61,030 nucleotides of DNA from a virus (lineage: Duplodnaviria > Caudoviricetes), in IMG/VR virus record IMGVR_UViG_3300025849_000037, positions 1-61,030 of that record; one strand, 5' to 3'. The notes beneath the pieces are model-generated. The model was not told where the DNA came from and made no database searches. It was given only the letters and a program-made list of their open reading frames with translations. The translations under genes and the position numbers were made by a program. Every line of letters begins with the position of its first letter. Within the stretch, counting starts at the first letter, position 1. Positions 1,391 through 19,064 of this stretch are shown here, piece by piece.

Positions 1391-1400
1391 ACCCATTCCC

Positions 1401-1479
1401 GTGGGGCGCTGAGTAAAGTACATGTTACGCAGAGTATATGTACCGAGACTCACAGCAGGAGCGAGACCTGCCGCCCTAC
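1401..1479 (+). ncRNA. tRNA-like element 1 (acceptor-like stem, long arm, T-like arm)
   Basis: GTGGGGCG/CGCCCTAC stem stacked on GCAGG-AGCGAGA-CCTGC (5 bp with 7-nt loop); inner arm TGAGT..GTACAT/ATGTAC..ACTCA. Confidence 0.6.
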
Positions 1480-1486
1480 CTAACCC

Positions 1487-1509
1487 GAGCCAACCACGGC
1501 TCACAAATT
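1487..1509 (+). promoter_or_regulatory. AACCAC-loop leader hairpin, copy 1
   Basis: GAGCC-AACCAC-GGCTC-ACAAATT, 8 nt before ATG 1518. Confidence 0.8.
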
Positions 1510-1517
1510 GAATCAAA

Positions 1518-1850
1518 ATGACCAACGCTGAAAAATTAATCGCAAGCCTAAGCCCCGTAAACACTAACCTAGATGGCGCACCAATCGTATGCTTAACGGC
1601 AGACCCGTACCTAGGTAAGTTTATGGTTAAGCAGCAGTTCAAACTAAGCCTAGGTAAGCCTACAACGCTGACCACATTGCACGACCCCGAAAGCGGTAGA
1701 CGAATCTTCACGGCACGTGATGAGGAAAGTCACGATGTTGCCGAGGGCGCTATGTCTAAGCTAGACTACGAATGCATGCGTAAATCGGAAGAGAACGCAA
1801 AACTAAGAACAGCATCGGTGGTTGCTCAATTGGGCTTCCTAGGTTGCTAA
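1518..1850 (+). CDS. Hypothetical early protein (110 aa)
   Basis: ATG follows the conserved leader and an A-rich initiation region. Confidence 0.75.
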   Translation: MTNAEKLIASLSPVNTNLDGAPIVCLTADPYLGKFMVKQQFKLSLGKPTTLTTLHDPESGRRIFTARDEESHDVAEGAMSKLDYECMRKSEENAKLRTASVVAQLGFLGC

Positions 1851-1888
1851 TTACCCGTGCTTCCCATAGCGAGGCGGCACGTTATTTA

Positions 1889-1949
1889 AGTGAGGGCAGC
1901 GGTAGACTGAAACAAGGTCTGCGCCTAGGTCGTGCTAGGACTGCTCACT
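1889..1949 (+). ncRNA. tRNA-like three-way-junction element 2
   Basis: P2 GTAGAC-TGAAACAAG-GTCTGC, G, P3 CCTAG-GTCGTG-CTAGG, bulged P1 AGTGAG(GG)CAG/CTGCTCACT. Confidence 0.7.
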
Positions 1950-1956
1950 ATTAATC

Positions 1957-1979
1957 GAGTCAACCACGACTCACAAATT
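1957..1979 (+). promoter_or_regulatory. AACCAC-loop leader hairpin, copy 2
   Basis: GAGTC-AACCAC-GACTC-ACAAATT; compensatory T-A pair relative to copies 1 and 3. Confidence 0.8.
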
Positions 1980-1987
1980 CAATCAAG

Positions 1988-2218
1988 ATGGCTAAAGTCA
2001 CTAGAAGTACTGCAGGCGCTAAGTTCGTCAGCAGCAAAGAAAAATTCAATGGGGCTCAGTTCGCTGAGTTCAACGTGAACGTTAAAGTAAGCAAGGGACG
2101 TGCTGAGCGGTTAGCTATGAAGGCTAGACTAGCTGAGGCTAAGGCTGTCATGGCTTTGCCCGTCAGCGCAGGATTCGTTGAAGTTAAGTCTAACCTAAAT
2201 TTCGCATACGCTGTATGA
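1988..2218 (+). CDS. Hypothetical basic early protein (76 aa)
   Basis: ATG after the conserved leader; coupled to the next ORF by ATGA. Confidence 0.75.
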   Translation: MAKVTRSTAGAKFVSSKEKFNGAQFAEFNVNVKVSKGRAERLAMKARLAEAKAVMALPVSAGFVEVKSNLNFAYAV

Positions 2219-2463
2219 AGAACGCTATAAAAGAAGTCATGTTCGACCTATTGGTGAACGGCTCAGTATCGGAAATGATGAAGACCATGCAGCTAGGTAT
2301 GCAGCATGACGAATACAACATCCGCTTCGTAGCGCAGCTATGTGCAGATGAGGCAGATACTATCGAGGAAGAGGGCGCTATGGTCGCAGACTATCCTAGT
2401 CTAGTTCATAGATGCGAATTGTACGCTGACGTAGTAACATTAATCGTAGATAGCAAGTTATGA
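2215..2463 (+). CDS. Hypothetical protein (82 aa)
   Basis: ATGA-coupled chain of ORFs. Confidence 0.75.
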   Translation: MKNAIKEVMFDLLVNGSVSEMMKTMQLGMQHDEYNIRFVAQLCADEADTIEEEGAMVADYPSLVHRCELYADVVTLIVDSKL

Positions 2464-2651
2464 ATCTAGTGAAACTAACCATAGCTGAAAGGCTAGAGAA
2501 AGAGCAGCTACATGAGGCATACGACCTAAGTAGAGCGTGCGGTGAGTTTAACGTATCCGAGGATATTGCTGAACTGATGTACTGCCCATGCGATGAGTAC
2601 CAAGATTTTCGTGAATCAATAATTAAAGGCCTAAAAGGAGAAAAGTTATGA
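2460..2651 (+). CDS. Hypothetical protein (63 aa)
   Basis: ATGA-coupled chain of ORFs. Confidence 0.7.
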   Translation: MNLVKLTIAERLEKEQLHEAYDLSRACGEFNVSEDIAELMYCPCDEYQDFRESIIKGLKGEKL

Positions 2652-2968
2652 GAGATTTCGTAGTAGGTACGCTACTCATTAGTGGTGGTGTTTGGTTCAG
2701 TCTAGGCTTCGCTTACGCTGACCGAGGCATGCTGCAAGCAGCAGCGGTATTCGGATTGCTAACCGCAGTCTTCTTGGTATGTGAGTTCATATACAATCGC
2801 GTCAAGCCTGCACCGCAGGTAGACGTTAAATGGATAGAAGTTAAACTGCAGGCCGTGCGCCATGGCGATGAGTTCTTCATCAAGAACCTAGAAACGGGCA
2901 CGCTGCGCCCTAGCAGCCGTGACGAAGTTTCCGAGTTATGGAACAAAGGTCAAATCACAATTAAGTAA
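2648..2968 (+). CDS. Hypothetical membrane protein, 2 TM segments (106 aa)
   Basis: Two N-terminal hydrophobic stretches; ATGA coupling. Confidence 0.75.
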   Translation: MRDFVVGTLLISGGVWFSLGFAYADRGMLQAAAVFGLLTAVFLVCEFIYNRVKPAPQVDVKWIEVKLQAVRHGDEFFIKNLETGTLRPSSRDEVSELWNKGQITIK

Positions 2969-2984
2969 TCTAAAACCCAACAAT

Positions 2985-3065
2985 ATGCTAGTAGCAACAT
3001 TAGTACTCACCTTAGTAGGTGCATCGTCTTCATTGGCTGTCGCAGGCCTCAAGTCTAACAAGTAA
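2985..3065 (+). CDS. Small hydrophobic peptide (26 aa, MLVATLVLTLVGASSSLAVAGLKSNK)
   Basis: Read by hand; A-rich leader, fills the gap before element 3. Confidence 0.5.
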   Translation: MLVATLVLTLVGASSSLAVAGLKSNK

Positions 3066-3073
3066 AAAATCAA

Positions 3074-3126
3074 TCTCTATGGCTGACTGCAATAAGGTCA
3101 GCGCCTACATCGTGGTAGGGTAGAGA
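3074..3126 (+). ncRNA. tRNA-like three-way-junction element 3
   Basis: P1 TCTCTAT/GTAGAGA (7 bp), G, P2 GCTGAC-TGCAATAAG-GTCAGC, G, P3 CCTAC-ATCGTG-GTAGG (5 bp) abutting P1. Confidence 0.8.
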
Positions 3127-3136
3127 CCTATTAACC

Positions 3137-3159
3137 GAGCCAACCACGGCTCACAAATT
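3137..3159 (+). promoter_or_regulatory. AACCAC-loop leader hairpin, copy 3
   Basis: GAGCC-AACCAC-GGCTC-ACAAATT before ATG 3167. Confidence 0.8.
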
Positions 3160-3166
3160 TAATTTT

Positions 3167-4528
3167 ATGTCACGTTTTGTAGCAGATGTGTGGGGTGTAG
3201 TAGCACTAGCACTAAATCAAGAAGATTCAAAGGTTCGCAACGTAGCGACCAAGTCTCAAATCCTATTCCGTACAGCAGGTATCAACCATGCAACCACGGG
3301 TAAGATGAGCACTAAGCAAGCCGTAGTGAAAATCAACGCATTAGTTCAAATGCATGTTGAGGCATTCAGCAATGGAAAATTGGGCGGGGAAGACTTAGAA
3401 TGTGTTCACGTTATCGTAGCGTACAAGTCCGATACCGATACACTCATGGTGTACGGGAACAGCGATGATACGCTAGGCGGTAAGCGCTTCGAGGAACTAG
3501 GCGAATACTCAAAATCTAGCGAGAAGAGATTCGGCAAATGGTACTTCAACATGGGGCAATTCCAAGATGCTGTTGCAGTCATGCTAGACCAATCATCAGC
3601 GCCCGAATTAATAGAGGCAGAAACCACAAAAACTGAAACCATGGGACAAACACCACAAGAATTGATGCTGCAGGCTATGAGCATGATGCAGCAAGGCGGC
3701 TCGATAGATGAGGCTGCTGTTGAGAAGATTGTAGACAAGCGTATCAAGGCTCAGTCTGCGACTAAGGTTGAAGTAGTGACAGCTACGGCAGTCAAGAAAG
3801 TAGACAAGGCTCACAAGAACTTTGCTGATGCTGTTGCGCTTGTAGGCCTAGGCAAGAATGTCACGCTGATTGGCGAGGCAGGGAGTGGTAAGTCTTACGG
3901 GGCTATCCAAATGGCTCGAGCGCTAGACCAAGAGTACGCTGTTGTATCATGTCACGGCAAGATGCAGTCGTTTGATTTGGTGGGCGCTATGTCTCCTACA
4001 ACGGGCGAATACATTAGCACTTCGCTACGTGATGCATACGAGAATGGTAAGGTGCTCATCCTCGATGAGTTTGACCGCTCTAACAACGAGACTACCATTG
4101 CGCTCAACGGAATCTTAGCAGGCGATTGCTACGGCTTTCCCGATGGTATGGTGCAGCGCCATGCAGACTTCAAGGTCATCGCATGTCAAAACACTTTCGG
4201 CACGGGTACATCTAAGGTGTACGGCTCAGCTAAGCCGCAGGATGGCTCAACGCTCACACGATTCACACGTGTTGTGTGGGACATCGACAGCAAGCTAGAG
4301 AAAGCTATATGTGGTGATACCCTTGCAACGAACGCTGTGCAGCGCATCCGCTCTAATGCTAAAGGCCTTGGATACGACCAAGTGCTTATCACACCGCGTC
4401 AAGCCATAGATGCTAACCAAATGGTACACAGCCTAGGTTGGTCAGTCAAGAAGGCTATCGAGTTCACTTGTCTCAACGGCCTAGCGGCTGATGTTCGCAA
4501 GAGATTATTGCAGGACGTTTCACTATAA
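3167..4528 (+). CDS. MoxR/CbbQ/CobS-type AAA+ ATPase
   Basis: Walker A GEAGSGKS, Walker B LILDEFDR, FPDG..RHADFKVIACQN, LTRF arginine-finger region. Confidence 0.85.
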   Translation: MSRFVADVWGVVALALNQEDSKVRNVATKSQILFRTAGINHATTGKMSTKQAVVKINALVQMHVEAFSNGKLGGEDLECVHVIVAYKSDTDTLMVYGNSDDTLGGKRFEELGEYSKSSEKRFGKWYFNMGQFQDAVAVMLDQSSAPELIEAETTKTETMGQTPQELMLQAMSMMQQGGSIDEAAVEKIVDKRIKAQSATKVEVVTATAVKKVDKAHKNFADAVALVGLGKNVTLIGEAGSGKSYGAIQMARALDQEYAVVSCHGKMQSFDLVGAMSPTTGEYISTSLRDAYENGKVLILDEFDRSNNETTIALNGILAGDCYGFPDGMVQRHADFKVIACQNTFGTGTSKVYGSAKPQDGSTLTRFTRVVWDIDSKLEKAICGDTLATNAVQRIRSNAKGLGYDQVLITPRQAIDANQMVHSLGWSVKKAIEFTCLNGLAADVRKRLLQDVSL

Positions 4529-4535
4529 CGTTCTT

Positions 4536-4588
4536 AGTCTGCGGCTAACTGAAATAAGGTTAGCGCCTAGGTCATGCTAGGGCAGACT
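4536..4588 (+). ncRNA. tRNA-like three-way-junction element 4
   Basis: P1 AGTCTGC/GCAGACT (7 bp), G, P2 GCTAAC-TGAAATAAG-GTTAGC, G, P3 CCTAG-GTCATG-CTAGG (5 bp). Confidence 0.8.
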
Positions 4589-4597
4589 GCTATTAAC

Positions 4598-4619
4598 GCC
4601 CCAACCACGGGCACAAATT
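4598..4619 (+). promoter_or_regulatory. AACCAC-loop leader hairpin, copy 4
   Basis: GCCCC-AACCAC-GGGC-ACAAATT immediately before ATG 4621. Confidence 0.7.
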
Positions 4620-4620
4620 A

Positions 4621-5517
4621 ATGCTTATGAGATATGAAATAATTGAAGGCAAGCGCATGCTCACCAAGGTGCAGACTACATTCTTTGAGTTTGTAGAGGG
4701 CTCTAATCGTGAGGGAAACGTACACAATTCTTCGGACAGCGATGGCTCTAGTTCGTTTTACGGAAACATCAAGTCCTACCAAGAGATGTACGATGCGTGC
4801 TACAGCGGACTGAATGTCAAGAAGATGATGAAAGCTACCGCAGACTTAAAGAGTCTAGTCAACCATGAGGTTGAGACCCCACGCAAAGCGATAGTAGGTG
4901 AGGCATTCAACGCTGCGGCATTCGCAGCAGGGCATCCTTACCACTACTACAAGGATGCTGATGAGTACGGAAAGCCTAGAGTACACTTAACATACAGCAC
5001 CAACGCTGTTGCAGGTGTACGTTCCGAGCAGTTCATTCGCCATGGCGCTGCACTATGTGCAGTCGCTGATGAGATAGCTGAGCAGGTAGATGTAAAGATT
5101 AGTCTATACATCACTAACGTGGGTGTTCTTGGCGGCAATGGCTGTCAAATAGTGACAATCAAAGACTACAACGAGGTTATCGACATCGCTAGAGTAGCTG
5201 CAACAGCGCATCCTAGTTTCTTTCGTCGCATCGGATTCTCATGGTTCGAGAACGCTAGCAGACTGATAGACTCACGTTGTTCTTCGGGATATGGCGGCTC
5301 TATGACGGGTACTAGCAGAGGGGCAGTCATCAGCGATGAAGAGTTCAAAGAGTGGGTAGGTGCTGCTAACGATGAAATGTTGGTAGACTTTCCTGCGCCC
5401 GATGAAGACCAATTCACGGATGATGACTACACCGCTGAATGGATTGCGAGCGCTATGGAAGACATTAGCGACTCAGTAGAAAAAGATGTTAAACATTGTA
5501 AATTATTTGGACTATGA
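4621..5517 (+). CDS. vWA/CobT-like partner of the AAA+ ATPase
   Basis: Directly downstream of a MoxR-type ATPase; alternating beta/alpha pattern and HPSFFRRIGF motif; MIDAS motif degenerate. Confidence 0.55.
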   Translation: MLMRYEIIEGKRMLTKVQTTFFEFVEGSNREGNVHNSSDSDGSSSFYGNIKSYQEMYDACYSGLNVKKMMKATADLKSLVNHEVETPRKAIVGEAFNAAAFAAGHPYHYYKDADEYGKPRVHLTYSTNAVAGVRSEQFIRHGAALCAVADEIAEQVDVKISLYITNVGVLGGNGCQIVTIKDYNEVIDIARVAATAHPSFFRRIGFSWFENASRLIDSRCSSGYGGSMTGTSRGAVISDEEFKEWVGAANDEMLVDFPAPDEDQFTDDDYTAEWIASAMEDISDSVEKDVKHCKLFGL

Positions 5518-5756
5518 TAGACTTTCATATTCACAAGGTCGGCTACCGAGAACGTTTGGTAGCTGACATCGAAACGGGGCTCATTGGCCGCATCTGCGAC
5601 AAGAACTACAGCGGACTATACGAGGTATGGTTCGAGCGTGAGCCATACCAACAAGACTTCGCTATAGAGAACAGCGAAGAGTACCCACTAGAGACTCAGT
5701 CCGAGTTTCCTAATCGTAAATTCAAAAAAGCTAATCAGTTAATCTTAATCGACTAA
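5514..5756 (+). CDS. Hypothetical protein (80 aa)
   Basis: ATGA coupling. Confidence 0.7.
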   Translation: MIDFHIHKVGYRERLVADIETGLIGRICDKNYSGLYEVWFEREPYQQDFAIENSEEYPLETQSEFPNRKFKKANQLILID

Positions 5757-5766
5757 AACCACTATT

Positions 5767-5970
5767 ATGAAAAATGCAATTTCTTACGACTTCGGGTCGT
5801 TAAACATCCAATCATTCTTTGATTCTGCTACGGGTGTAGCTAAGTCTGTCATCCGTTGGGATGGCGCTGCTATGGATACGCTGACTTACTCAGCTAACGA
5901 TGCAGACGATGCAGTAGACAAGGCTGTACGCTTTGCGACTGAGCGTGCTCAATTAGAATTGATAGGGTAA
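5767..5970 (+). CDS. Hypothetical protein (67 aa)
   Basis: ORF in the early gene chain. Confidence 0.7.
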   Translation: MKNAISYDFGSLNIQSFFDSATGVAKSVIRWDGAAMDTLTYSANDADDAVDKAVRFATERAQLELIG

Positions 5971-6149
5971 TGAGTATTAATAGAGAAATGTTCTTAGCGT
6001 ACGAGGCAGTACGTGAGAGCGGTTACTACAACATGTTCGATAGACGAGCATTAGACCTAGCTAACGAGATGAATGACCTAAGCATGGACATCGGTCAATG
6101 GTCGTTCATTATCACTAACTATGACAAACTTAAAAAGACTTACCTATGA
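5970..6149 (+). CDS. DUF5049-like small protein (59 aa)
   Basis: Read by hand: MSINREMFLAYEAVRESGYYNMFD...; TAATG and ATGA coupling on either side. Confidence 0.7.
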   Translation: MSINREMFLAYEAVRESGYYNMFDRRALDLANEMNDLSMDIGQWSFIITNYDKLKKTYL

Positions 6150-6364
6150 ATTTCCAAGTAAGAGTTCCCGTGATTATCACTAGGACATTGCGCACACATG
6201 TGACGATAGACCTAGACGATGAGCAGTTCGATAAGTTCATCACCGACCAAATCCTTATAACGAATCAAGACGAGTTAGAGGATTTATATTACAGCCAATT
6301 CAATGAGGAAGACTTCTTCGAAGAGAGTCTAATCTTTGAGGTTGAGGATGCTTACGAGCATTAA
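6146..6364 (+). CDS. Hypothetical acidic protein (72 aa)
   Basis: ATGA coupling; very D/E-rich. Confidence 0.7.
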   Translation: MNFQVRVPVIITRTLRTHVTIDLDDEQFDKFITDQILITNQDELEDLYYSQFNEEDFFEESLIFEVEDAYEH

Positions 6365-6431
6365 GCGTGTATGGTACTCTTGTCCGAGCATGGCTCCAAG
6401 AGGTAGGGCGGTTCGATTCCGCCCCACGCTA
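6364..6431 (+). ncRNA. tRNA-like element 5 with canonical T-loop and no D or anticodon arm
   Basis: AGCGTG/CACGCT stacked on GGGCGG-TTCGATT-CCGCCC; TATGGT linker; single arm CTCTTG..GAGC-ATG-GCTC..CAAGAG. Confidence 0.7.
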
Positions 6432-6458
6432 CACAGCGAACGTTCACTATAACGTTCC

Positions 6459-6511
6459 GCTCTCAATGACCTTGCAAGCATGTGGTTATGACGCGCAAGT
6501 AGAGAGCACCA
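6459..6511 (+). ncRNA. Minihelix-like hairpin ending in ACCA
   Basis: GCTCTC/GAGAGC stem followed directly by ACCA (6508-6511); inner CTTGC/GCAAG stem. Confidence 0.45.
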
Positions 6512-6537
6512 TATTTAAATTCATAAATACAATTATC

Positions 6538-6960
6538 ATGATTGAAACAAAAGAAGGATTGCTAGAGTATTGGACAGAACAATCTCTACCCCAAGGAACA
6601 GCAGAGAACATCCATTGGCTAAGACATAGCTGTGATGCTTTCTTCTTAGACAAGGGCTACCGCCCATTGAATTACCCACACAGCGATGCGTTTCAAACGT
6701 ATCACAACCCCAAGGGCAACAAGGCTGTTAGAGTAAATATAGCGAGGACATTCGATGACTCGTTGCTAGGCAATGAGAATTGGATTATAGTAGAGGCTAG
6801 AGGCAACACTTATGTAGCGCCCTACAATGCTGCTAGAGACATGGGTGTGATTACGAGTATTAGAGGCATGTACTTTACAGACTCGTCTAACTCAACCGCA
6901 GAAGACTTAATTAAATCAACTGAAATACTAATAGATAATAATTTAGCCTATGAAATTTGA
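6538..6960 (+). CDS. Hypothetical protein (140 aa; start moved from 6367 to ATG 6538)
   Basis: AT-rich initiation region before 6538; the upstream part of the ORF is occupied by RNA structures. Confidence 0.7.
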   Translation: MIETKEGLLEYWTEQSLPQGTAENIHWLRHSCDAFFLDKGYRPLNYPHSDAFQTYHNPKGNKAVRVNIARTFDDSLLGNENWIIVEARGNTYVAPYNAARDMGVITSIRGMYFTDSSNSTAEDLIKSTEILIDNNLAYEI

Positions 6961-7342
6961 TGACATCTTTAGCCCTCAAGAAAGTACCGAGGGAACAACA
7001 ATTACAGACTTCTTTGGGGTCGATACCGACAAGATGGTATCGTGGGTCAAGGACGTTGTAAAACTCAGCAGACAAGAAGACGTTCTAGATACCGACATCG
7101 TGATAGCGGCCATGGCTGTCACGGAGACTAAAGAGGAACTAGCTGTCTTGCAACACTTGGTGCTGAAGGCTACCATGAGTGAGATAATGTCTACCGCAGA
7201 TGAGTCTGCTAGACTACTAGATTGGACTCGTGAGGCACTTGAAAACATGAGTGAAGAGGCGCAGGCTCAGTACGCTGAGTTCATGGTCGGGAAACTCTTA
7301 GAGAACGGAGATATTAACTTCGAAGATTTTGATGACGAGTAG
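6950..7342 (+). CDS. Hypothetical acidic protein (130 aa)
   Basis: ORF overlapping the previous stop codon. Confidence 0.75.
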   Translation: MKFDDIFSPQESTEGTTITDFFGVDTDKMVSWVKDVVKLSRQEDVLDTDIVIAAMAVTETKEELAVLQHLVLKATMSEIMSTADESARLLDWTREALENMSEEAQAQYAEFMVGKLLENGDINFEDFDDE

Positions 7343-7391
7343 TTACTTAGTAACTCACACGTGTACGTATACGCACTATGAATATATATAT

Positions 7392-7430
7392 GTAATCTCT
7401 TCTCCCTTATAGGGGAGAAGAAGAGATTAC
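7392..7430. other. Long intergenic hairpin in an AT-rich, palindrome-rich spacer
   Basis: GTAATCTCTTCTCCCT-TATA-GGGGAGAAGAAGAGATTAC. Confidence 0.55.
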
Positions 7431-7457
7431 TCAAGATAATAACTTAAATTAATACCT

Positions 7458-7829: not shown

Positions 7830-7876
7830 ATCCTGCCGCCACTTTGTATATTAGTAGTAACCAACAACAACAACAT

Positions 7877-9641: not shown

Positions 9642-9665
9642 TTTTAATTTAATAAATAATCAATT

Positions 9666-9980: not shown

Positions 9981-10013
9981 ATTAGGATATCTTAATTTAA
10001 TGTATTACATTTG

Positions 10014-10044
10014 TGCCCCTGCTAGAAATAGTGGGGGCATTTTT
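10014..10044 (+). terminator. Intrinsic terminator-like hairpin
   Basis: TGCCCCTGCTA-GAAA-TAGTGGGGGCA-TTTTT; TACATTTG lies just upstream (10006-10013). Confidence 0.6.
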
Positions 10045-10046
10045 AC

Positions 10047-10128
10047 GGGGGTGTATGGTGGGTGATACCTAAAACAATTGTGTAAGTCTTTGGGTGTTGC
10101 GGAAGTTCGACTCTTCCCTCCCTCACTA
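10047..10128 (+). ncRNA. tRNA-like element 6 with canonical T-loop (shaped like the tRNA-like domain of tmRNA)
   Basis: GGGGGTG/CTCCCTC (7 bp, one mismatch) stacked on GGAAG-TTCGACT-CTTCC; the same GTGTATGGT as element 5; ends ACTA. Confidence 0.7.
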
Positions 10129-10145
10129 ATTTAATTAAACAACAT

Positions 10146-12944: not shown

Positions 12945-14640
12945 TGGAGACAAGAAAGCTAAGACTCAGCTACCCGTAGTATTATTTTCGGGAGAGTTTA
13001 CTGCTCGTGAAGATGACCAACTCATCTCTCACAGCGGACTGATTGTCCTAGACTTCGACCACATTGATGTAGAGGCTTACAAGAACATCCTCTGTACTGA
13101 TGACCACATCCTAGCTTGTTGGATATCGCCTAGTGGTGATGGCCTAAAAGCTTTAGTTCGTATCAGCAACCCCGAGCGCCACAGAGACCACTTCCGTGCG
13201 CTCATCGCTTACTTCGACAAGCAGTACAACTTGGAACTCGACCAATCGGGTGCTAACGAGTCTCGTGCATGTTTCGAATCTTATGACGAGCACATATGCA
13301 TCAAGGAAGACGCAACTACCTTTGGCGGTATGCTTTCCGATGAGGGTGCTAAGCGTAACGAGAATGCGCCTCTACTAGAGGGGAACTTTACAGACTACCA
13401 AAAACTCAACGTTGCAGCACGTATGATTCGTACTGCTCAAGACGGGGAGAAGCATGCGACATTGCTCAAGGCAGCTATCCTTTGTGGTGGTTACATTGGC
13501 GCAGGACGTATGGAAGAGTCCGAGGTTCTTAGAGTATTAGAGCGTGAGATTGAGAAGCACGACGTAGACTCATTGGATACGGCACGTAATACTATCCGTG
13601 ATGGTATCGAGCAGGGTAAGCTGTTGCCTATCCGTGAGGTCATGGATGTGGAGAACGAAATCAAGCGGGACGAGTTAATCGAGACTACAGACATGTCGTT
13701 TGTATCTAGTGATGACGAGGACATGGCTTGGATTAACGCTCTTGCAGAAGGCAAGCTAGAACTAGGACTCACTACGGGTAACGCTAGACTAGACGAGCAC
13801 TTCTTATACAAGAAAGAGTTCTTCATCTTCAATGGTCACTCAAACGTAGGTAAGACTACGATGGCTTTGTACATGATGGTAAACGCTTCCATGCGTCATG
13901 ATTGGAAGTGGCTAATCTATTCCGCAGAGAATAAGACAGCATCTATCAAGGCTAAGCTAATGTCTTTCGCAGGCAACAAGCCGTTGAACAAGATGTCTTA
14001 CCATGAGCGTAAGTTCTTGTACGAGTGGGTCAACAAACACTTCGTAGTAGTTAGCAACAAGCAAGTCTACACGTACTACGACTTGATTATCTTTGCTGAG
14101 AAGATGATAAAGAATGGCGGCATAGACGCTTTCTTCATTGACCCTTACAACTCGTTGAAGATTGACTTGAGTGGCCGTAGCCAAATCGGTGTTCACCAAT
14201 ACCACTACGAGGCAGCTAGTGAGTTCCTAACGTTTGCTAACAAGCATAACATTGCGTTATGGCTAAACACTCACGCTGTTACAGAGGCCCAAAGACGCAA
14301 AGGTTCGGACGGATTACCCGTTGCGCCTTTCGCTGAGGATACTGAAGGCGGTGGTCTTTTCGTGAATCGCGCAGATGCGTTCGCTACATTTCACAGAAAA
14401 ATTCAGCATCCCGAGCCTGCAATGCGTAGAACAATGGAGTTCCACGTTCGTAAGGTTCGTGAAGTAGAGACGGGTGGTAAGCCTACGGGTTTCCTAGAGC
14501 CGTTGTGTTTCGAACTCAATAGTTCTATGACAGCGTTCTCTATCGGTGGAAAGCCTTTGTTTGATGACTTGTTCACTATGCAGCAAGGTACACAGACTGA
14601 GGCTGTTATCCCTCAAGGTGACTTGCAGAACGTATTCTAA
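12808..14640 (+). CDS. Primase-helicase (BT4734/VirE-N-type primase fused to a DnaB-like helicase)
   Basis: HSGLIVLDFDH, WISPSGDGLKAL, SRACFESYD; Walker A GHSNVGKT, FFIDPYN. Confidence 0.85.
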   Translation: MAKKEPRVTMFQSVFKTDKPYHITLTTALQRIAEGSSKDTIQAVRDGDKKAKTQLPVVLFSGEFTAREDDQLISHSGLIVLDFDHIDVEAYKNILCTDDHILACWISPSGDGLKALVRISNPERHRDHFRALIAYFDKQYNLELDQSGANESRACFESYDEHICIKEDATTFGGMLSDEGAKRNENAPLLEGNFTDYQKLNVAARMIRTAQDGEKHATLLKAAILCGGYIGAGRMEESEVLRVLEREIEKHDVDSLDTARNTIRDGIEQGKLLPIREVMDVENEIKRDELIETTDMSFVSSDDEDMAWINALAEGKLELGLTTGNARLDEHFLYKKEFFIFNGHSNVGKTTMALYMMVNASMRHDWKWLIYSAENKTASIKAKLMSFAGNKPLNKMSYHERKFLYEWVNKHFVVVSNKQVYTYYDLIIFAEKMIKNGGIDAFFIDPYNSLKIDLSGRSQIGVHQYHYEAASEFLTFANKHNIALWLNTHAVTEAQRRKGSDGLPVAPFAEDTEGGGLFVNRADAFATFHRKIQHPEPAMRRTMEFHVRKVREVETGGKPTGFLEPLCFELNSSMTAFSIGGKPLFDDLFTMQQGTQTEAVIPQGDLQNVF

Positions 14641-14657
14641 TCTTGTATATTTAGATT

Positions 14658-15137
14658 ATGAGAAAGTTCACAAGAAAAAAGAAGACGGGTGCGGTTAAGT
14701 CTAAGAAGAAAGTCATAGACGGAATCACATTCGCTTCGAGCCTTGAAGCCTACTGCTACACTAAGCTAAAGGAAAATAATATAGACTTTGAATACGAGGG
14801 CGAATCATTCGTGGTTCTACCCTCGTTCAAGTATCTAGGACGTTACCTTGCATCTTCGCCTAAGAAGAAAGAGTTAACAGACAAGACGGGTAAGGCTGTT
14901 CGTGCTATCACGTATACCCCCGACTTCGTCAGCCATGATAACAAGTTTATAATAGAGACCAAGGGCTTTGTACCTAGCAATCACTCGTTTCCACTTCGTT
15001 GGAAATTGTTCCTAGCATACCTAAATGATAACGGCATGCAGGATTACCAAGTATTCTTACCTAAAAATCAAGGTCAAGTAGATGACCTAATCAAAATCCT
15101 AACAGAAGATGGAAGACAATCCGATTTATTTGAATAA
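14658..15137 (+). CDS. Endonuclease I-like / DUF1064 PD-(D/E)XK nuclease (possible resolvase)
   Basis: DGITFASSLE, YTPDF and IIETKG motifs. Confidence 0.75.
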   Translation: MRKFTRKKKTGAVKSKKKVIDGITFASSLEAYCYTKLKENNIDFEYEGESFVVLPSFKYLGRYLASSPKKKELTDKTGKAVRAITYTPDFVSHDNKFIIETKGFVPSNHSFPLRWKLFLAYLNDNGMQDYQVFLPKNQGQVDDLIKILTEDGRQSDLFE

Positions 15138-15330
15138 GCAAGAGGTGTTCGAGTTCCAAAAGAAAACGATATCTCGTATTGCAGACTATGTGTACGACCT
15201 AGAAGACACTCTTGCTGAATTGGGCACAGACTTAGCAGCAACCAAGAAGGAAGCCGCATGGCTTCGTAAGGCAATCGAGGTAGAACTCGAAGGTATTGTA
15301 GCAATTGTAGAAGAGTTTCACGGATTGTAA
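15109..15330 (+). CDS. Hypothetical coiled-coil protein (73 aa)
   Basis: ORF in the gene chain. Confidence 0.65.
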   Translation: MEDNPIYLNKQEVFEFQKKTISRIADYVYDLEDTLAELGTDLAATKKEAAWLRKAIEVELEGIVAIVEEFHGL

Positions 15331-15509
15331 TGGAGACAATACTTAAAATACTAACGGGTGTGTGGCTGTTTATGGCCTACACCTATATGGCTACGTACTA
15401 CACAGCCTTGATGAGAGAAGATAATAGAACTGACGCGCAGCAAAACCTTGTACATATTGTGGTTTTGTCGTGGTTCTTTATCTCAATATATTGGTTGATT
15501 AAATTTTAG
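15330..15509 (+). CDS. Small 2-TM membrane protein (59 aa)
   Basis: Read by hand: METILKILTGVWLFMAYTY...; TAATG coupling. Confidence 0.6.
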   Translation: METILKILTGVWLFMAYTYMATYYTALMREDNRTDAQQNLVHIVVLSWFFISIYWLIKF

Positions 15510-15514
15510 AAACT

Positions 15515-15952
15515 ATGGCTAAGCGATTCGAAAGACCCGAGGATATTGCCCGTGAAATAAAAGCGGTCAACCTATTTATATCGGGTAGAGGAGACTTGTC
15601 TCACAACAAACTCAGTCCGCACGAGATTGACTTCAGTATCCGAAAGGATGGAGCAGACGTTGCGTACATCGAGGTAAAGGGAGTGAAGAAAGTTAAGTCT
15701 GTCTTCGATGAGCATGTACCCGTAGTAGCAATAAAGAAACTAACATCATTGCAGAAGTACGTCAACGAAAAGAAGTGCCCTAACGTTTATATAGCGTGGG
15801 CATACAGCGACGGCATCAAGTACGCTAAGGTTACAGACTTGAAAGGCAGCATCCGTTGGGGTGGGCAGTTCAAGCCTCGTGCAGGCTCTGTCAACGACCA
15901 CGAACTCATGTTCGAGGATGAGGGCACAGCATTTACAATCAAAACTTACTAA
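15515..15952 (+). CDS. PD-(D/E)XK-fold nuclease-like protein
   Basis: IDF..........YIEVKG motif. Confidence 0.65.
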   Translation: MAKRFERPEDIAREIKAVNLFISGRGDLSHNKLSPHEIDFSIRKDGADVAYIEVKGVKKVKSVFDEHVPVVAIKKLTSLQKYVNEKKCPNVYIAWAYSDGIKYAKVTDLKGSIRWGGQFKPRAGSVNDHELMFEDEGTAFTIKTY

Positions 15953-15979
15953 TCTAATCCTATCTTAATTTAATCTATT

Positions 15980-16714
15980 ATGAAAAAGTCTAAACAATCA
16001 CGTCCACGTTTGAGCGGTGCTAAGAAGACTAACTTTGAATACTTCAACAGCGGAGACAACAGAGTCTTAGTTATTGGAGATATCCACGCACCATTCGACT
16101 TAGACGGCTATCTAGACCATTGTAAAGAAACTTATGAGCGCTACAATTGTAACAAGGTTGTGTTCATTGGCGATGTCATTGACAACCACTACTCTTCATA
16201 CCACGAGACTGATGCTAACGGCATGGGCGGTGGCGACGAACTAAAGTTCGCTATCAAGAGACTTGCGCCTTACTACAAGGCATTCCCCGAAGCTGTTGTG
16301 TTGTGGGGTAACCACGATAGACTAATCATGCGTAAAGCACAGACTAGCGGTCTTCCTGCTGAATGGCTACGCGACATCTCAGAAGTATTGCAGACACCTA
16401 AGTGGGAGTTCATGATGGACTACTACCTTGATGGAGTGCGCTACACTCACGGAGACGGCTCGGGTAAAGCTAAGACTGCTTGTGTTCGTGATATGCAGTC
16501 TACGGTAACGGGACACTACCACACGGATTTCTATGTAAACTACCACGTCGGTGCTAACACTCGTGTGTTCGGTATGGCTGTTGGTTGTGGTATTGATGAC
16601 AAGTCTTACGCTATGGGCTACGCTAAAGGCGGTAAGAAGTCTGCTATCGGTTGTGGTGTTGTTCTTGACGGGACTACAGCAATCGCAGTTCCAATGAGAC
16701 TAGGCGGTAAGTAA
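15980..16714 (+). CDS. Calcineurin-like metallophosphoesterase
   Basis: GDIH, GDVID, GNHD, THG and GHYH motifs. Confidence 0.9.
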   Translation: MKKSKQSRPRLSGAKKTNFEYFNSGDNRVLVIGDIHAPFDLDGYLDHCKETYERYNCNKVVFIGDVIDNHYSSYHETDANGMGGGDELKFAIKRLAPYYKAFPEAVVLWGNHDRLIMRKAQTSGLPAEWLRDISEVLQTPKWEFMMDYYLDGVRYTHGDGSGKAKTACVRDMQSTVTGHYHTDFYVNYHVGANTRVFGMAVGCGIDDKSYAMGYAKGGKKSAIGCGVVLDGTTAIAVPMRLGGK

Positions 16715-16812
16715 TGCTTATCTTAATTTATTACTCAGTAGTAGCAGCCGTGGGTGTTCTCATGGGCGCTACGCTGTGGTACATAGAAAAGTATTGGAAA
16801 CATGATAGCTGA
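16714..16812 (+). CDS. Small TM peptide (32 aa)
   Basis: Read by hand: MLILIYYSVVAAVGVLMGATLWYIEKYWKHDS; TAATG coupling. Confidence 0.5.
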   Translation: MLILIYYSVVAAVGVLMGATLWYIEKYWKHDS

Positions 16813-16885
16813 TTTTATCATAGGTGCGGTAGTCGTAGGACTATGGAACGCATACCTAATATGGAAAATGAAAAGAGGTAAATAA
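16802..16885 (+). CDS. Small TM peptide (27 aa)
   Basis: Read by hand: MIADFIIGAVVVGLWNAYLIWKMKRGK. Confidence 0.5.
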   Translation: MIADFIIGAVVVGLWNAYLIWKMKRGK

Positions 16886-16970
16886 GCACCACTAACAAGA
16901 GTTCAAGCATATAAAGATGGGAAATTCCATCAAATCATATGCATAAACACAACCTTTAACACCAAAGAGA

Positions 16971-17276
16971 ATGTACAAAGTATCAATTGAAAACCTACAT
17001 GACGCATATCTAAAGGGGTATGCCGATGCACTAAACAAAAAAGCCAACATGGAAAACGGCTTGGAAGTTTACGATTGGCTGTCGGGCACAAAGCGTGTCG
17101 ACACGTCAGTCGAAGGAGTCGAGACTGCAGACAACCTGCAATCATGGCAGACTGAAATCATCAACAAAGAGATTGAGGATTTTTACAACGAGGACACAGA
17201 GGAAAGACTAATCATTCCTCGTGACCCATTTGGAGAGCATTTTACAATTAACCCTAATTCAGCAGAAGAAAAATGA
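16971..17276 (+). CDS. Hypothetical protein (101 aa)
   Basis: ORF with ATGA coupling downstream. Confidence 0.7.
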   Translation: MYKVSIENLHDAYLKGYADALNKKANMENGLEVYDWLSGTKRVDTSVEGVETADNLQSWQTEIINKEIEDFYNEDTEERLIIPRDPFGEHFTINPNSAEEK

Positions 17277-17614
17277 AAGCATTCGCAGAAAAAGCAACAC
17301 TGATGGCCGACGGAGACGGCATCAAACTCTATGAAGTCATTTGGTATGACGGACACGGAAAGAAGCATCTAGACACAGCTAGAGGACACAACATGAAGTC
17401 AGCGCTAGACACTATTCTTAAACAGAAGAAAGCCGACACCATTAAGTCTGTCCCCGAGTGGGTTTGGATTTTACTCTACATGGTATTTTCGGGCACTTTT
17501 GCGGCCTCTGTACTCTATGGCGGAGTCAACATATTATCAGCCTTATTGGGCGGCATAGCAATAGCCTTAGTGGGTTATATGTTTATCAATAAGTACTTCC
17601 GATATACAGAATAA
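17273..17614 (+). CDS. Membrane protein with two C-terminal TM segments
   Basis: Hydrophobic C-terminal half. Confidence 0.7.
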   Translation: MKAFAEKATLMADGDGIKLYEVIWYDGHGKKHLDTARGHNMKSALDTILKQKKADTIKSVPEWVWILLYMVFSGTFAASVLYGGVNILSALLGGIAIALVGYMFINKYFRYTE

Positions 17615-17648
17615 TTTCGTATATTTGAAGGCTCTTGAGATTAACTAG

Positions 17649-17671
17649 GGGGATGCGAAAGCGTCCCCTTT
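17649..17671 (+). terminator. Intrinsic terminator
   Basis: GGGGATGC-GAAA-GCGTCCCC-TTT. Confidence 0.7.
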
Positions 17672-17702
17672 GTTGTCTCTATGTTTAACTAAATCACTTA
17701 TT

Positions 17703-17936
17703 ATGGGAAAATTCGTAATAGACCCCAATCGCTACGTTAAGCGCAATACCAAGAAAATACAACATAGACTAATTAGAACTTGGACATCATTAACCACAAG
17801 GGACGGAAACCTTTACATGATAGATGATAAGATGTACCAAGTAAGCAAAGGAAGATATACGTACATAGGTAAAGTATGTGACATGTATGAAGGGGATTAC
17901 ACGAGTATTCCTGCAGTAGAAATCATTAAAGACTAA
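17703..17936 (+). CDS. Hypothetical protein (77 aa; ATG 17703)
   Basis: In-frame ATG with AT-rich leader. Confidence 0.65.
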   Translation: MGKFVIDPNRYVKRNTKKIQHRLIRTWTSLTTRDGNLYMIDDKMYQVSKGRYTYIGKVCDMYEGDYTSIPAVEIIKD

Positions 17937-17944
17937 AAGAAAAT

Positions 17945-18067
17945 ATGGGAGAATTTGAAATGGACGGAGACTTTGCGGACTTCGTTAACGACCTAACAGA
18001 AGACAAAGCAAACGAGAATGCAGTATGCGGCCTAGACGGGTCTGATTGCGATAGCTGTGGCTCTTAA
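17945..18067 (+). CDS. Small acidic Cys-tail peptide (40 aa)
   Basis: Read by hand: MGEFEMDGDFADFVNDLTEDKANENAVCGLDGSDCDSCGS. Confidence 0.65.
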   Translation: MGEFEMDGDFADFVNDLTEDKANENAVCGLDGSDCDSCGS

Positions 18068-18286
18068 ATGTGTATGCAATGTAAAGGGATGTGCGAGTCT
18101 TGTAAGGCTGAGTACATCAACACACGACTCCAAAGATGCGCTAGTCTGTTTGCGAACTTGGGAATTGACTCAACCCCTGCTGAAAGGGAGTACGCTTACG
18201 CTAAAGAAAAACTTTTGCTTGAACAAATTCGTAAGGTAGACTTGGAAAAAGGTAACCGACTTCTTAATATAGAAGTAGACGAATAA
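18068..18286 (+). CDS. Small protein with CxxC-CxxC N-terminus
   Basis: MCMQCKGMCESCK. Confidence 0.7.
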   Translation: MCMQCKGMCESCKAEYINTRLQRCASLFANLGIDSTPAEREYAYAKEKLLLEQIRKVDLEKGNRLLNIEVDE

Positions 18287-18297
18287 ACAATTTAATT

Positions 18298-18507
18298 ATG
18301 CCTAATTATATTCATAAAGAAACGGGAGAACTTAAACGTTTCCCATCAGTAAGAATCTCTTGGGACTCAGAAACGGGCGAGAAGTCTGAAGTCTGTCTAG
18401 ACACCAACGAGAACATCTTAGAAAATTACATAGCTGAAGAAGCGGCAGGAGACTACTCGTCTATCAAAATGAAGAAAGCGTTCGGTGACGGACGTGGTGT
18501 ACGATAG
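18298..18507 (+). CDS. Hypothetical protein (69 aa)
   Basis: Last gene of the + strand early/middle block. Confidence 0.7.
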   Translation: MPNYIHKETGELKRFPSVRISWDSETGEKSEVCLDTNENILENYIAEEAAGDYSSIKMKKAFGDGRGVR

Positions 18508-18517
18508 TGTTCACTAT

Positions 18518-18568
18518 AACTATGTCGCAGCTATAGAGGCTGTGCGAGTTCATGACTCGGGCATAGTT
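18518..18568 (+). ncRNA. tRNA-like three-way-junction element 7
   Basis: P1 AACTATGTC/GGCATAGTT, P2 GCAGC-TATAGAG-GCTGT, G, P3 CGAGT-TCATG-ACTCG abutting P1. Confidence 0.65.
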
Positions 18569-19059: not shown

Positions 19060-19064
19060 TGTTT

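Follow-up and report, generated by a model that had tools for sequence, protein, structure and literature searches.

Results

A phage early gene block with seven structured intergenic elements

The DNA that we analyzed (61,030 nucleotides, hereafter the window) is the complete 61-kb genome of a marine podophage whose distant kin are crAss-like phages and Flavobacterium and Cellulophaga phages; the host group of this uncultured phage is Bacteroidota. Comparison with PHROGs and Pfam showed that the + strand gene block encodes Erf, an exonuclease, a primase-helicase, a resolvase, a phosphoesterase and a weakly sigma-like protein, and found no tRNA-related enzyme or partner protein there. Seven tRNA-shaped elements had been proposed in this block, and all seven were present at the positions given in the earlier note, on the + (gene) strand, located in gaps that separate + strand open reading frames (Table 1). 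Indeed, the local RNA fold of each consisted of a closing stem around two arms, as claimed, the 3' arm lying directly against the 3' strand of the closing stem. When each element was compared with 200 dinucleotide shuffles, the z-scores of elements 1 to 7 were -4.73, -2.51, -4.72, -3.31, -3.68, -2.77 and -4.40, and 0, 1, 0, 0, 0, 2 and 0 of the shuffles folded equally well. The lengths of the stacks also agreed with those reported (7+5 bp in elements 3, 4 and 6, and 6+6 in element 5); that of element 1 was 8+5 bp. With a strict MFE parse of whole intergenic gaps, the fold was recovered in 4 of 13 gaps in the + block versus 0 of 15 in the late (- strand) block.

The elements share one architecture but, in correction of their joint description, do not form one sequence family; at least four types were distinguished: element 1 (type I), elements 2-4 (type II), elements 5 and 6 with a canonical T arm, and element 7. 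None is followed by CCA, in line with the earlier observation; the tails are CCTAACC, (A)CTATTAA, CCTATTAA, GCTATTAA, ACACAG, ACTAATT and CAAGAG. The claimed downstream start was likewise found, with an ATG 18-108 nt away in six elements. The exception is element 7, the final feature of the + block, after which there is a terminator only and no gene. A hairpin lies within about 10 nt upstream of five of the seven elements (folds read by eye).

Table 1 Elements and associated features of the + strand block
Feature	Position	Strand	Description
Element 1, type I	1401..1479	+	8-bp closing stem; long arm with conserved loop GTTACGYAGAGTAT; 5-bp 3' arm with conserved loop AGCGAGA
Leader hairpin 1	1487..1502	+	GAGCC-AACCAC-GGCTC; flanks CTAACCC / ACAAATT; ATG 1518
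Element 2, type II	1889..1949	+	Closing stem; loops TGAAACAAG (arm 1) and GTCGTG (arm 2)
Leader hairpin 2	1957..1972	+	GAGTC-AACCAC-GACTC; ATG 1988
Element 3, type II	3074..3126	+	Stack 7+5 bp
Leader hairpin 3	3137..3152	+	ATG 3167 (AAA ATPase gene)
Hairpin with TTCACTATAAC motif	4512..4533	+	Overlaps ATPase gene stop codon; adjoins element 4 upstream
Element 4, type II	4536..4588	+	Stack 7-8+5 bp
Leader hairpin 4	4598..4612	+	GCCC-CAACCAC-GGGC; ATG 4621
Element 5	6364..6431	+	6-bp acceptor-like stem (6364-6369 with 6425-6430), TATGGTA, extra arm
Element 5 T arm	6406-6424	+	6 bp, loop TTCGATT; A after closing stem
Hairpin 3' of element 5	6438..6457	+	GAACGTT-CACTAT-AACGTTC
Bacteroidota-type -7 box, then hairpin	10006..10046	+	Box TACATTTG; 12-bp hairpin and T run
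Element 6	10047..10125	+	7-bp acceptor-like stem (1 mismatch, 1 G-U), TATGGTGGG, long extra arm
Element 6 T arm			GGAAG-TTCGACT-CTTCC, then A; ATG 10146
Element 7	18518..18568	+	7-9 bp closing stem, arm 1, 5-bp arm 2 with loop TCATG
Terminator-like hairpin, bidirectional	18629..18646	.	Separates + block from convergent - strand genes

Most elements are followed by a leader hairpin and a start codon, with tight coupling at four of the seven in the window. This conserved downstream unit, CTAYTAAYCG followed by the hairpin and CACAAATT, is a module distinct from the elements. All pairs were formed in 19 leader hairpins (100%), with compensatory changes in two of five pairs, and the leaders are A/T-rich and without Shine-Dalgarno sequences. 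In the related phage MW202828 the flanks TAAYCG ... CACAAA are kept even though the hairpin sequence differs. At most + strand junctions of this phage the leader hairpin stands alone, with no tRNA-like element, so not every cistron requires the mimic; its + block ends in two tandem elements with no gene after them.

Bacteroidota -7 promoter boxes are frequent upstream of late genes, and no such host-type box was found on the + strand upstream of position 10006. A long early transcript requiring cutting is plausible. The -7 box in the region 10006..10046 is followed by a terminator-like hairpin, and element 6 lies directly downstream of this region; because of the promoter-like box and the terminator-like hairpin, the task of element 6 cannot be merely the splitting of a polycistron.

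Conservation and covariation

The same gene slots are occupied by elements in five related phage contigs. The neighbouring ATPase is only 59-65% identical across the compared genomes. To follow the helices in these relatives, as the earlier note had proposed, we used three alignments (A6, A8 and A9), all of which confirmed them. Among ten type II sequences (A6), 97.8% of 180 cells in 18 pairs were paired, and 13 of the 18 pairs had changed on both sides, which was matched by 0 of 500 shuffles. The closing stem and 3' arm of six type I orthologues (A8) were paired in 100% of 78 cells, with both-side changes in 5 of 13 pairs; for three orthologues of the element 7 type (A9), the values were 97.9% of 48 cells and 8 of 16 pairs. 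We conclude that the helices are real structures under selection. Loops are also kept within types (TGAAAYAAG, AGCGAGA, GTTACGYAGAGTAT). According to our own tally, the helices of A6, A8 and A9 contain 13 G-U cells versus 4 A-C/C-A cells, so the opposite strand would fold worse. The stem of the hairpin at 6438..6457 covaries in the relatives G001 and G003 (AATCGTT/AACGATT), and the extra arm of element 5 is absent from its G003 orthologue.

Likeness to tRNA

The proposed tRNA mimicry was supported by the relatives, more strongly than the earlier note could show; in many of the same slots they carry a canonical T arm, a D-loop-like ATGGTA and a 12-bp stack. We scanned for a canonical T arm with an abutting acceptor strand; 14 of 16 matches were retained, whereas two inside the ATPase coding sequence, with weak G-U stems, were removed. 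The retained elements (two in the window, two in G001, six in G002, two in G003 and two in MW202828) are all on the gene strand, all have the loop TTCGANT with its closing G-C pair (G53-C61), and in all of them an acceptor stem of 6-7 bp is stacked without spacer on a T arm of 5-6 bp, giving 12 bp (7+5 or 6+6). An A follows the stem in 12 and CCA in none; the anticodon arm is absent from all 14. Most have an ATGGTA-like GG in the 5' linker, which in MW202828 (637-696) lies within a real 4-bp D arm. Compared with shuffles, the T-arm scan gave 4 matches in G002 versus a mean of 0.2, and 2 versus 0.6 in the window.

In types I, II and 7 the 3' arm ends in loops (AGCGAGA, RTCRTG and TCATG) that depart from the canonical T loop, and the stacks can reach 13-14 bp; recognition by RNase P and RNase Z is therefore less certain for these types than for elements 5 and 6. 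In the slots flanking the ATPase gene, where the window has type II elements, G002 and G003 have forms with a canonical T arm, and this filling of one gene slot by different types across genomes indicates a single function.

ARAGORN detected no tRNA in the window and one doubtful, marginal tRNA-Tyr at the element 5 slot of G002. The suggested comparison with Rfam (E<=1 to 10) matched no tRNA or other family beyond a bare 17-nt T arm, that of element 5 aligning to the T arm of tmRNA. By these searches the elements are not tRNAs. The slot of element 6 is syntenic with a true tRNA-Ala of Flavobacterium phage elemoA.

Strain variants and transcripts

Four runs, all consisting of assembled contigs, were compared with the phage sequence. 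Strain variants end at element borders, with loose ends at 3068 and 10045 in run X15. A contig of a related strain from an RNA library (X20 record 26) starts within the element 1 homologue, crosses the site predicted for the 3' cut and continues into the first gene, so either uncut RNA or contaminating DNA exists.

Discussion

Our preferred reading, to which we give about an even chance, is that RNase P and RNase Z of the host cut these mimics of the tRNA top half out of a polycistronic phage mRNA and so split it. An acceptor/T minihelix is sufficient for both of these nucleases as well as for the CCA-adding enzyme, and tRNA-like mimics are cut in this way in mitochondria, MALAT1/mascRNA and murine gammaherpesvirus 68 (MHV68). 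Since the top half is the recognition target of both nucleases, cuts by the host enzymes would be expected. Against excision serving as a spacer stands element 7, with no gene after it.

This last point, together with the two tandem elements of MW202828, fits better if the excised mini-RNAs are themselves the product, stable, possibly CCA-tailed and anticodon-less, and mRNA splitting a by-product. They might act as a sponge or decoy for host factors whose target is the top half of tRNA or its 3' end, such as acceptor-end-modifying defence toxins, modification enzymes or Ro/Y-RNA-type partners. We regard this as unlikely: it shares its structural evidence with excision, and loop conservation within types suggests specific partners, but the + block encodes no recognizable partner protein in PHROGs or Pfam, and the coupling to leader hairpin and start codon at four of seven elements argues for a role in expression in cis. 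The earlier idea of a decoy for anticodon-cutting nucleases is unsupported, as no anticodon arm is present in the elements. A role in cis could also be played by uncut elements, either as insulators that block exonucleases or as elbow mimics that aid re-initiation by contacting the ribosome or a factor on Bacteroidota mRNAs without Shine-Dalgarno sequences. The A/T-rich leaders, the start codon 18-41 nt downstream of five of the seven elements and the RNA-library contig spanning one predicted cut site are consistent with this. However, RNase P and RNase Z are expected to accept an exposed acceptor/T minihelix as a substrate whatever the cell, element 7 lacks a gene to act on, and most MW202828 genes are preceded by the leader hairpin alone, which makes uncut elements distinctly unlikely.

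It is quite improbable that the elements act as DNA, whether as promoters of hairpin or cruciform shape for an RNA polymerase delivered with the virion, modelled on N4 or on a crAss-like enzyme transcribing single-stranded DNA, or as recombination hot spots for cassette shuffling, modelled on T4 PeSL. The missing host-type promoter box upstream of 10006, the variant breaks at element borders and the leader-hairpin flanks kept in MW202828 around a differing hairpin would agree with it, as would the crAss-like phage phi14:2, for which part of the published account describes a virion RNA polymerase that transcribes single-stranded DNA and early transcripts without a common motif. But no DFDxD or other RNA polymerase motif was found in any frame of the window, and the 2833-aa open reading frame has no Pfam, PHROG or PDB match. 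Moreover, the G-U pairs favour the sense strand, the T-loop/D-loop consensus is a signature of RNA tertiary structure with no known meaning in DNA, and N4 promoter loops are of 3 nt, not three-way junctions; a DNA-level role fits the leader hairpin better than the tRNA-like elements. The true tRNA-Ala in the elemoA slot and the marginal tRNA-Tyr of G002 raise the question of whether the elements are decaying, now functionless tRNA genes. We think it likely that they derive from tRNAs but not that they have lost their function, and we consider such remnants highly improbable: compensatory changes keep the helices paired despite the divergence of the ATPase, every copy lacks the anticodon arm and keeps the acceptor/T stack, pointing to selective retention, and there are at least seven copies per genome, all on the gene strand.

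The elements and their proposed processing have several known counterparts, and our literature searches found no description of such tRNA-like spacers in phages. In animal mitochondria, working tRNAs with anticodons lie between coding regions and are excised by RNase P and RNase Z, CCA not being encoded. The phage elements resemble this punctuation in position, shape and lack of CCA, with cleavage here a proposal, but are anticodon-less mimics in a double-stranded DNA phage of bacteria. The tRNA-like folds of MALAT1 mascRNA and of the pre-miRNA-fused units of murine gammaherpesvirus 68 recruit RNase P and/or RNase Z, which set the RNA ends. They too lie inside a longer transcript, in the latter case a viral one, but have eukaryotic hosts, a full cloverleaf-like fold and one or few copies, whereas the phage elements have a bacterial host, only the top half, and a place between protein-coding genes. 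At the RNase III sites of T7 early mRNA, the host enzyme cuts the polycistron and leaves hairpins on the products; RNase III requires a duplex of about 20 bp. The analogy drawn with these sites holds for function (structured intercistronic signals, proposed cutting by a host RNase, hairpin-ended products) but not for structure, the elements being three-way junctions or tRNA minihelices with helices of at most 9 bp. The T4 PeSL (promoter-early stem-loop) combines a sigma-70 promoter with a simple stem-loop at which gene cassettes are exchanged. Repetition ahead of small early genes and strain breaks at the borders are similar, but no host promoter is seen here and the structure is tRNA-like. 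The closest functional analogue is the plant mitochondrial t-element, a non-decoding acceptor/T mimic beside mRNA ends that aids 5' and 3' end formation (PMC1920247). The t-elements are organellar, few per genome and unrelated in sequence, unlike the phage elements, which are a repeated family of several sequence types, linked to a leader hairpin that is itself conserved. Bacterial YrlA Y RNAs (PMC4201824) and the tRNA-like domain of tmRNA are non-decoding and, like the phage elements, combine a T arm with an acceptor-like stem and D-loop contacts; the phage elements differ in lacking a Ro-binding helix, tag reading frame and pseudoknots, and in being embedded between genes rather than free-standing.

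The elements are sense-strand RNA structures of the early/middle transcripts. They reproduce the upper part of a tRNA, with the acceptor stem coaxial on a T arm and without anticodon arm or encoded CCA, and the D-loop-like GG, where present as it usually is, could form the tRNA elbow. If they are carried on long transcripts, host RNase P would make its cut at the first base of the stem, and RNase Z, or another 3' pathway of like effect, would cut just past the base following the stem, releasing a mini-RNA of 40-80 nt and dividing the polycistronic message. The upstream product would usually be hairpin-terminated, and the downstream product would start a few bases 5' of the leader hairpin and its A/T-rich, Shine-Dalgarno-less leader; cleavage may affect the stability and translation of the separate phage messages.

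Seven structured elements lie between genes of the rightward block

The earlier note had described seven tRNA-shaped elements between early genes of this phage, and all seven were found as described, intergenic and on the gene strand. Each local fold (7/7) consisted of a closing stem and two arms, with the 3' arm abutting the 3' closing strand, in agreement with the architecture proposed for them. The z-scores of the folds ranged from -2.5 to -4.7, and 0-2 of 200 shuffled sequences folded equally well. In minimum-energy folds of whole gaps (strict parse), the same shape was present in 4 of the 13 rightward-block gaps versus none of the 15 gaps in the late block. No element ends in CCA, and a start codon follows 18-108 nt downstream of six of the seven, both as claimed. 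The shared architecture held, and by sequence the elements fall into at least four types: element 1 (type I), elements 2-4 (type II), elements 5 and 6 with their textbook T arm (loop TTCGATT or TTCGACT), and element 7. No gene follows element 7, and element 6 directly follows a promoter-like box and a terminator-like hairpin. According to our reading of the folds, a hairpin is present at most about 10 nt upstream of five of the seven elements.

Features of the window and of other phages considered here.
Feature	Source	Position	Strand	Remarks
Element 1 (type I)	window	1401-1479	+	
Element 2 (type II)	window	1889-1949	+	
Element 3 (type II)	window	3074-3126	+	
Element 4 (type II)	window	4536-4588	+	
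Element 5 (canonical T arm)	window	6364-6431	+	
Element 6 (canonical T arm)	window	10047-10128	+	
Element 7	window	18518-18568	+	
CCCATTCCCGTGGG	window	1392-1405	+	just before element 1
Exact reverse complement of CCCATTCCCGTGGG	window	18605-18618		just after element 7
Motif (G)TTCACTAT(A/C)AC	window	4518-4529, 6442-6453, 10329-10340, 18509-18520		
GCACTATGAATATATATATGTA and long hairpin	window	7343-7457		
Three GGGTAG repeats	window	~519-590		non-coding left arm
-7 boxes, strong hairpin with T run directly after	window	10006-10046 and 17620-17670	+	motif scan
Late-gene boxes TATATTTG or TATCTTTG	window	27590-60395	-	often right after T-rich terminators
2833-aa ORF	window	19065-27566	-	no Pfam, PHROG or PDB match, no DFDxD motif
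tRNA-like elements	MW202828.1 (L044)	523-629, 637-696, 44484-44530		two tandem tRNA-like elements ending the rightward block and one three-way junction before a leader hairpin
Candidate element	Cellulophaga phage phi13:2 (L049)	27796-27875		intergenic, before a MazG-like gene, unannotated
tmRNA gene	Cellulophaga phage phi14:2 (L047)	4031-4500		ARAGORN; Rfam E 9e-16, 46 bits vs gathering score 47

Further signals were noticed around the elements. The 14-nt sequence CCCATTCCCGTGGG and its exact reverse complement each occur once and together bracket the entire rightward gene block; both copies are kept in the related contigs G001 and G002, and the pair could be bound by a protein, or could mark an origin or a boundary. 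The motif (G)TTCACTAT(A/C)AC usually forms the loop of a hairpin with covarying stems and adjoins tRNA-like elements, or is the extra arm inside them in the related contigs G002 and G003; one copy overlaps the stop codon of the AAA ATPase gene and one lies within a coding region. After the conserved stretch GCACTATGAATATATATATGTA comes a long hairpin with near-perfect pairing; in G001 and probably in G002 its sequence is changed and its pairing kept. Many elements of the relatives use the GGGTAG hexamer, repeated in the left arm, as their 5' closing strand. Contigs of a related strain (run X15, probably DNA) depart from the window at 3068 and 10045, precisely where elements 3 and 6 have a border, which suggests an exchange of cassettes at these elements.

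Related phages keep the elements in the same slots and preserve their pairing

A search with the ATPase returned five related IMG/VR contigs, one with 96% and four with 59-63% identity of the ATPase; two of the five are complete genomes (63 and 66 kb). The elements of these contigs occupy the same gene slots as in the window. A scan of IMG/VR for the leader hairpin, a separate module between the tRNA-like element and the start codon, gave 28 loci, 8 of which had the right context, judged by reading their flanks, and the rest of which looked like chance matches. These 8 loci come from the same five contigs, and a profile search returned the same five too. One pattern scan of metagenomes produced a single match, in an unrelated GC-rich contig. 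Positions 1-20000 of the window had no megablast match among GenBank phages, and tblastn with the ATPase as query returned distant AAA proteins only.

Pairing was conserved in each of the three alignments that we built. The type II alignment (elements 2-4; 10 sequences, 18 pairs) had 97.8% of 180 cells paired, with 13 pairs changed on both sides. For the element 1 type (closing stem and 3' arm; 6 sequences, 13 pairs), 100% of 78 cells were paired and 5 pairs were changed on both sides, and for the element 7 type (3 sequences, 16 pairs) the values were 97.9% of 48 cells and 8 pairs. None of 500 shuffles matched the values observed for type II on four of five measures, and sliding the partners lowered pairing to 29-39%. 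A tally over the helices of the three alignments gave 13 G-U cells vs 4 A-C/C-A cells; therefore, the sense strand folds better than its complement.

The earlier note had suggested a covariance model as a check, and the type II model indeed found exactly the known copies, three in the window and eight in the relatives, and nothing else in the complete genomes. Beyond its training copies this model (R2) recovered only a second copy in the related contig G005, and it had no match in the freshwater relative MW202828 or in Flavobacterium phage elemoA. An alternative model (R1), built from three minimal elements, was discarded as too narrow, with the 5' strand of element 5 partly mis-set. No single covariance model covers all types.

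The elements resemble the top half of a tRNA

Many slots in the relatives carry plainly tRNA-like forms. Scanning for a canonical T arm directly adjoined by an acceptor strand yielded 16 matches, two of which were dropped, as they lay inside the ATPase coding sequence and had G-U-rich stems. The 14 canonical elements kept (two in the window, two in G001, six in G002, two in G003 and two in MW202828) are all on the gene strand, and all have the loop TTCGANT with a G-C closing pair and an acceptor/T stack of 12 bp, 7+5 or 6+6, with no spacer. An A follows the stem in 12 of the 14, and CCA in none. In most of them ATGGTA or a similar GG motif stands just past the 5' acceptor strand; in the MW202828 element at 637-696 a genuine D arm of 4 bp has this motif as its loop, which marks it as a D-loop remnant. 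The minimal forms (about 42 nt) consist of the acceptor, this remnant and the T arm; the other forms have one variable arm in place of the D and anticodon arms.

The acceptor/T stack of about 12 bp, which the earlier note had named as the core determinant for RNase P and RNase Z, was recovered without a spacer in all types: 7+5 or 6+6 in the 14 canonical elements, 7+5 in type II, and 13-14 bp in elements 1 and 7. A tRNA T arm (5-bp stem, 7-nt loop TTCRANN, G53-C61) is present in elements 5 and 6 and in 12 elements of the relatives. Elements 1-4 and 7 lack it; their loops read AGCGAGA, RTCRTG and TCATG. In type II the closing stem is followed by one or two unpaired G residues and the 3' loop retains a TC, features that an elbow contact would require; this loop has 6 nt and is not a canonical T loop. 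Slots change type between genomes: at both ATPase junctions the window has type II and G002 or G003 a canonical T arm, and the G003 orthologue of element 5 has no extra arm. This switching in orthologous slots argues that all types do the same job.

ARAGORN found no tRNA in the window and one marginal tRNA-Tyr among eight related loci; the latter is the element-5 slot of G002 and was unsupported by Rfam. The Rfam tRNA model (RF00005) had no match at E<=10 in window 1-19200 and none at E<=1 in four related loci. Membership of a known family, which would have removed the novelty, was not seen, as Rfam 15 gave no match at the gathering score over the whole window. The only related sub-threshold match linked element 5, by its 17-nt T arm, with tmRNA models; Spot 42, SNORD46 and mir-676, which appeared at permissive thresholds, were dismissed as chance. 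We rejected the elements as tRNA genes in their own right, because despite the T arm and the 12-bp stack they have no cloverleaf with an anticodon arm and no RF00005 match. In elemoA, a true tRNA-Ala occupies the position syntenic with element 6; together with the marginal tRNA-Tyr call in G002, this points to an origin of the elements from phage tRNA genes. The structure of the elements and selection on it are established here, as are their tRNA signature, their strand and their position between genes.

A leader module is separable from the tRNA-like elements

The leader module follows elements 1-4 in the window and most elements in the relatives. It consists of CTA(NN)TAAYCG, a hairpin of 4-5 bp with the loop (N)ACCAC, and CACAAAT, with the ATG about 10 nt further on. 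The hairpin was 100% paired in 19 copies, with two of its five pairs compensatory. In MW202828 at least eight genes are preceded by the equivalent module (TAATCG, GTGTCGTTAACGACAC, (C)ACAAA), in most cases without any tRNA-like element; therefore the two modules are separable, and the mimic is dispensable at most junctions of this phage. The leader as an antisense Bacteroidota promoter was rejected, as its reverse complement fits TAnnTTTG in only one of the four window copies.

Gene layout and host

The window, a complete virus record of 61,030 bp, comes from marine samples. Its genes run rightward from about 1.5 to 18.5 kb and leftward in the remainder, which includes those for the portal, the terminase and a crAss-type muzzle protein, as well as an ORF of 2833 aa. 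Genes for an AAA ATPase, Erf, an exonuclease, a weak sigma-like protein, a primase-helicase, a resolvase and a phosphoesterase lie in the rightward block. Terminase identity is 45% with the freshwater podophage MW202828 and 33-39% with Flavobacterium elemo and Cellulophaga phages; similarity to crAss-like phage terminases is weak. The 2833-aa ORF has unnamed metagenome homologues of 2700-3500 aa; as no RNA polymerase motif, family, PDB match or named homologue was found, its identity as a virion RNA polymerase is unsupported.

Boxes of the form TAnnTTTG, which we take to be the Bacteroidota promoter box, stand before the late genes, and so the host is very probably a member of Bacteroidota; the boxes also suggest use of the host RNA polymerase. 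On the + strand, only two intergenic boxes of the Bacteroidota -7 type were detected, at 10006 and 17620, and none before 10006. Each may be an overlapping terminator/promoter signal, which suggests that the rightward block is split into three units. The count of sigma-70-type promoters was not above that in shuffles.

Predicted processing and its alternatives

RNase P, RNase Z and the CCA-adding enzyme read the acceptor/T minihelix and the elbow, and tRNA-like mimics within longer RNAs are cut by enzymes of this kind in mitochondria, plant t-elements, MALAT1 and a herpesvirus. The elements resemble the units of mitochondrial tRNA punctuation, and their closest likeness is to plant mitochondrial t-elements. 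All have a tRNA-like fold on the sense strand, adjoin coding regions and are presumably present in the mRNA. Since they are anticodon-less top halves that stand, in sense orientation, in the gaps of a gene block poor in promoters, the simplest reading is that they are processing signals, a prediction to which we give an even chance. Host RNase P and RNase Z would excise the mimics from a promoter-poor early polycistronic RNA, so that the upstream RNA would end in a hairpin and the downstream RNA would start just before the leader hairpin; we infer co-transcription, cleavage and these consequences.

Several observations count against processing. One RNA-library contig, from low-depth assembled contigs of a kind that does not resolve RNA ends, runs from within the element-1 homologue across the predicted cut and into the first gene. 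The non-canonical loops of types I and II and of element 7, the lack of a gene downstream of element 7, the position of element 6 after a promoter-like box and terminator-like hairpin, and the mimic-free junctions of MW202828 argue in the same direction. That the elements remain uncut and serve in stability or translation is, in our estimate, quite improbable, and it is unlikely that the excised mini-RNAs are the real product. A role at the DNA level, as promoter or recombination elements, appears very improbable, as no RNA polymerase motif or family was found; a preprint on phi14:2 reports no motif common to early promoters. The view that the elements are functionless tRNA remnants is contradicted by the covariation and has hardly any probability left.

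Known signals of other kinds fitted poorly. An RNase III site of the T7 type needs a near-continuous duplex of about 20 bp, and the longest helix here has 9 bp. An N4-type hairpin promoter has a 5-7 bp stem, a 3-nt loop and a virion RNA polymerase gene; the elements are three-way junctions, the leader hairpin loops have 5-7 nt, and no RNA polymerase motif or family match was seen. Self-cleaving ribozymes were rejected on the lack of an Rfam match and on junctions with almost no unpaired core, attP sites on the at least seven copies per genome, each with both acceptor strands, and on the lack of an integrase in the + block, and tmRNA or YrlA-type Y RNA on the lack of an Rfam family match for the elements.

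Other phages and significance

The early block of elemoA had no such elements, only the true tRNA-Ala. The candidate in phi13:2 combines a 7-bp acceptor stem, perfectly paired, with a long arm and a canonical T arm (loop TTCGAGT); it had no ARAGORN call and a fold energy no better than shuffles, and could be due to chance. The phi14:2 preprint reports long intergenic regions that are highly transcribed; these were rejected as a parallel, since one of the two contains the tmRNA gene. Full-text literature searches, with thin coverage of subscription journals, turned up no tRNA-like processing or punctuation elements in phages. The kind of signal is already known; what is new is the host-virus setting in which it is predicted to occur, along with its sequence types.

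Processing of phage mRNA is known mostly through RNase III and RNase E sites in coliphages, and to our knowledge almost nothing is known of it in Bacteroidota phages. Bacteroidota mRNAs are without Shine-Dalgarno sequences, and crAss-like relatives dominate gut and marine viromes. We tentatively propose, at somewhat less than even probability, that one clade of Bacteroidota podophages, marine and freshwater, has converted former tRNA genes into top-half mimics that lack an anticodon and serve as punctuation; their excision by host RNase P and RNase Z would give mRNAs with a hairpin cap at each end, together with mini-tRNA-like RNAs that may act on host factors recognizing the elbow or acceptor end. 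If true, tRNA punctuation would be described for the first time outside organelles, and for the first time in a bacterial virus. Since canonical and derived types share slots, they would form a natural series of T arm and elbow drift under continued selection, and the candidate in the cultured phi13:2 may make the idea testable at the bench. If the elements recruit RNase P and RNase Z, they would offer small natural parts of 40-55 nt for the expression of several genes in Bacteroidota, would explain how separate messages arise from a long early region without recognisable promoters, and would mean that the mitochondrial principle of tRNA punctuation arose independently in a bacterial virus.
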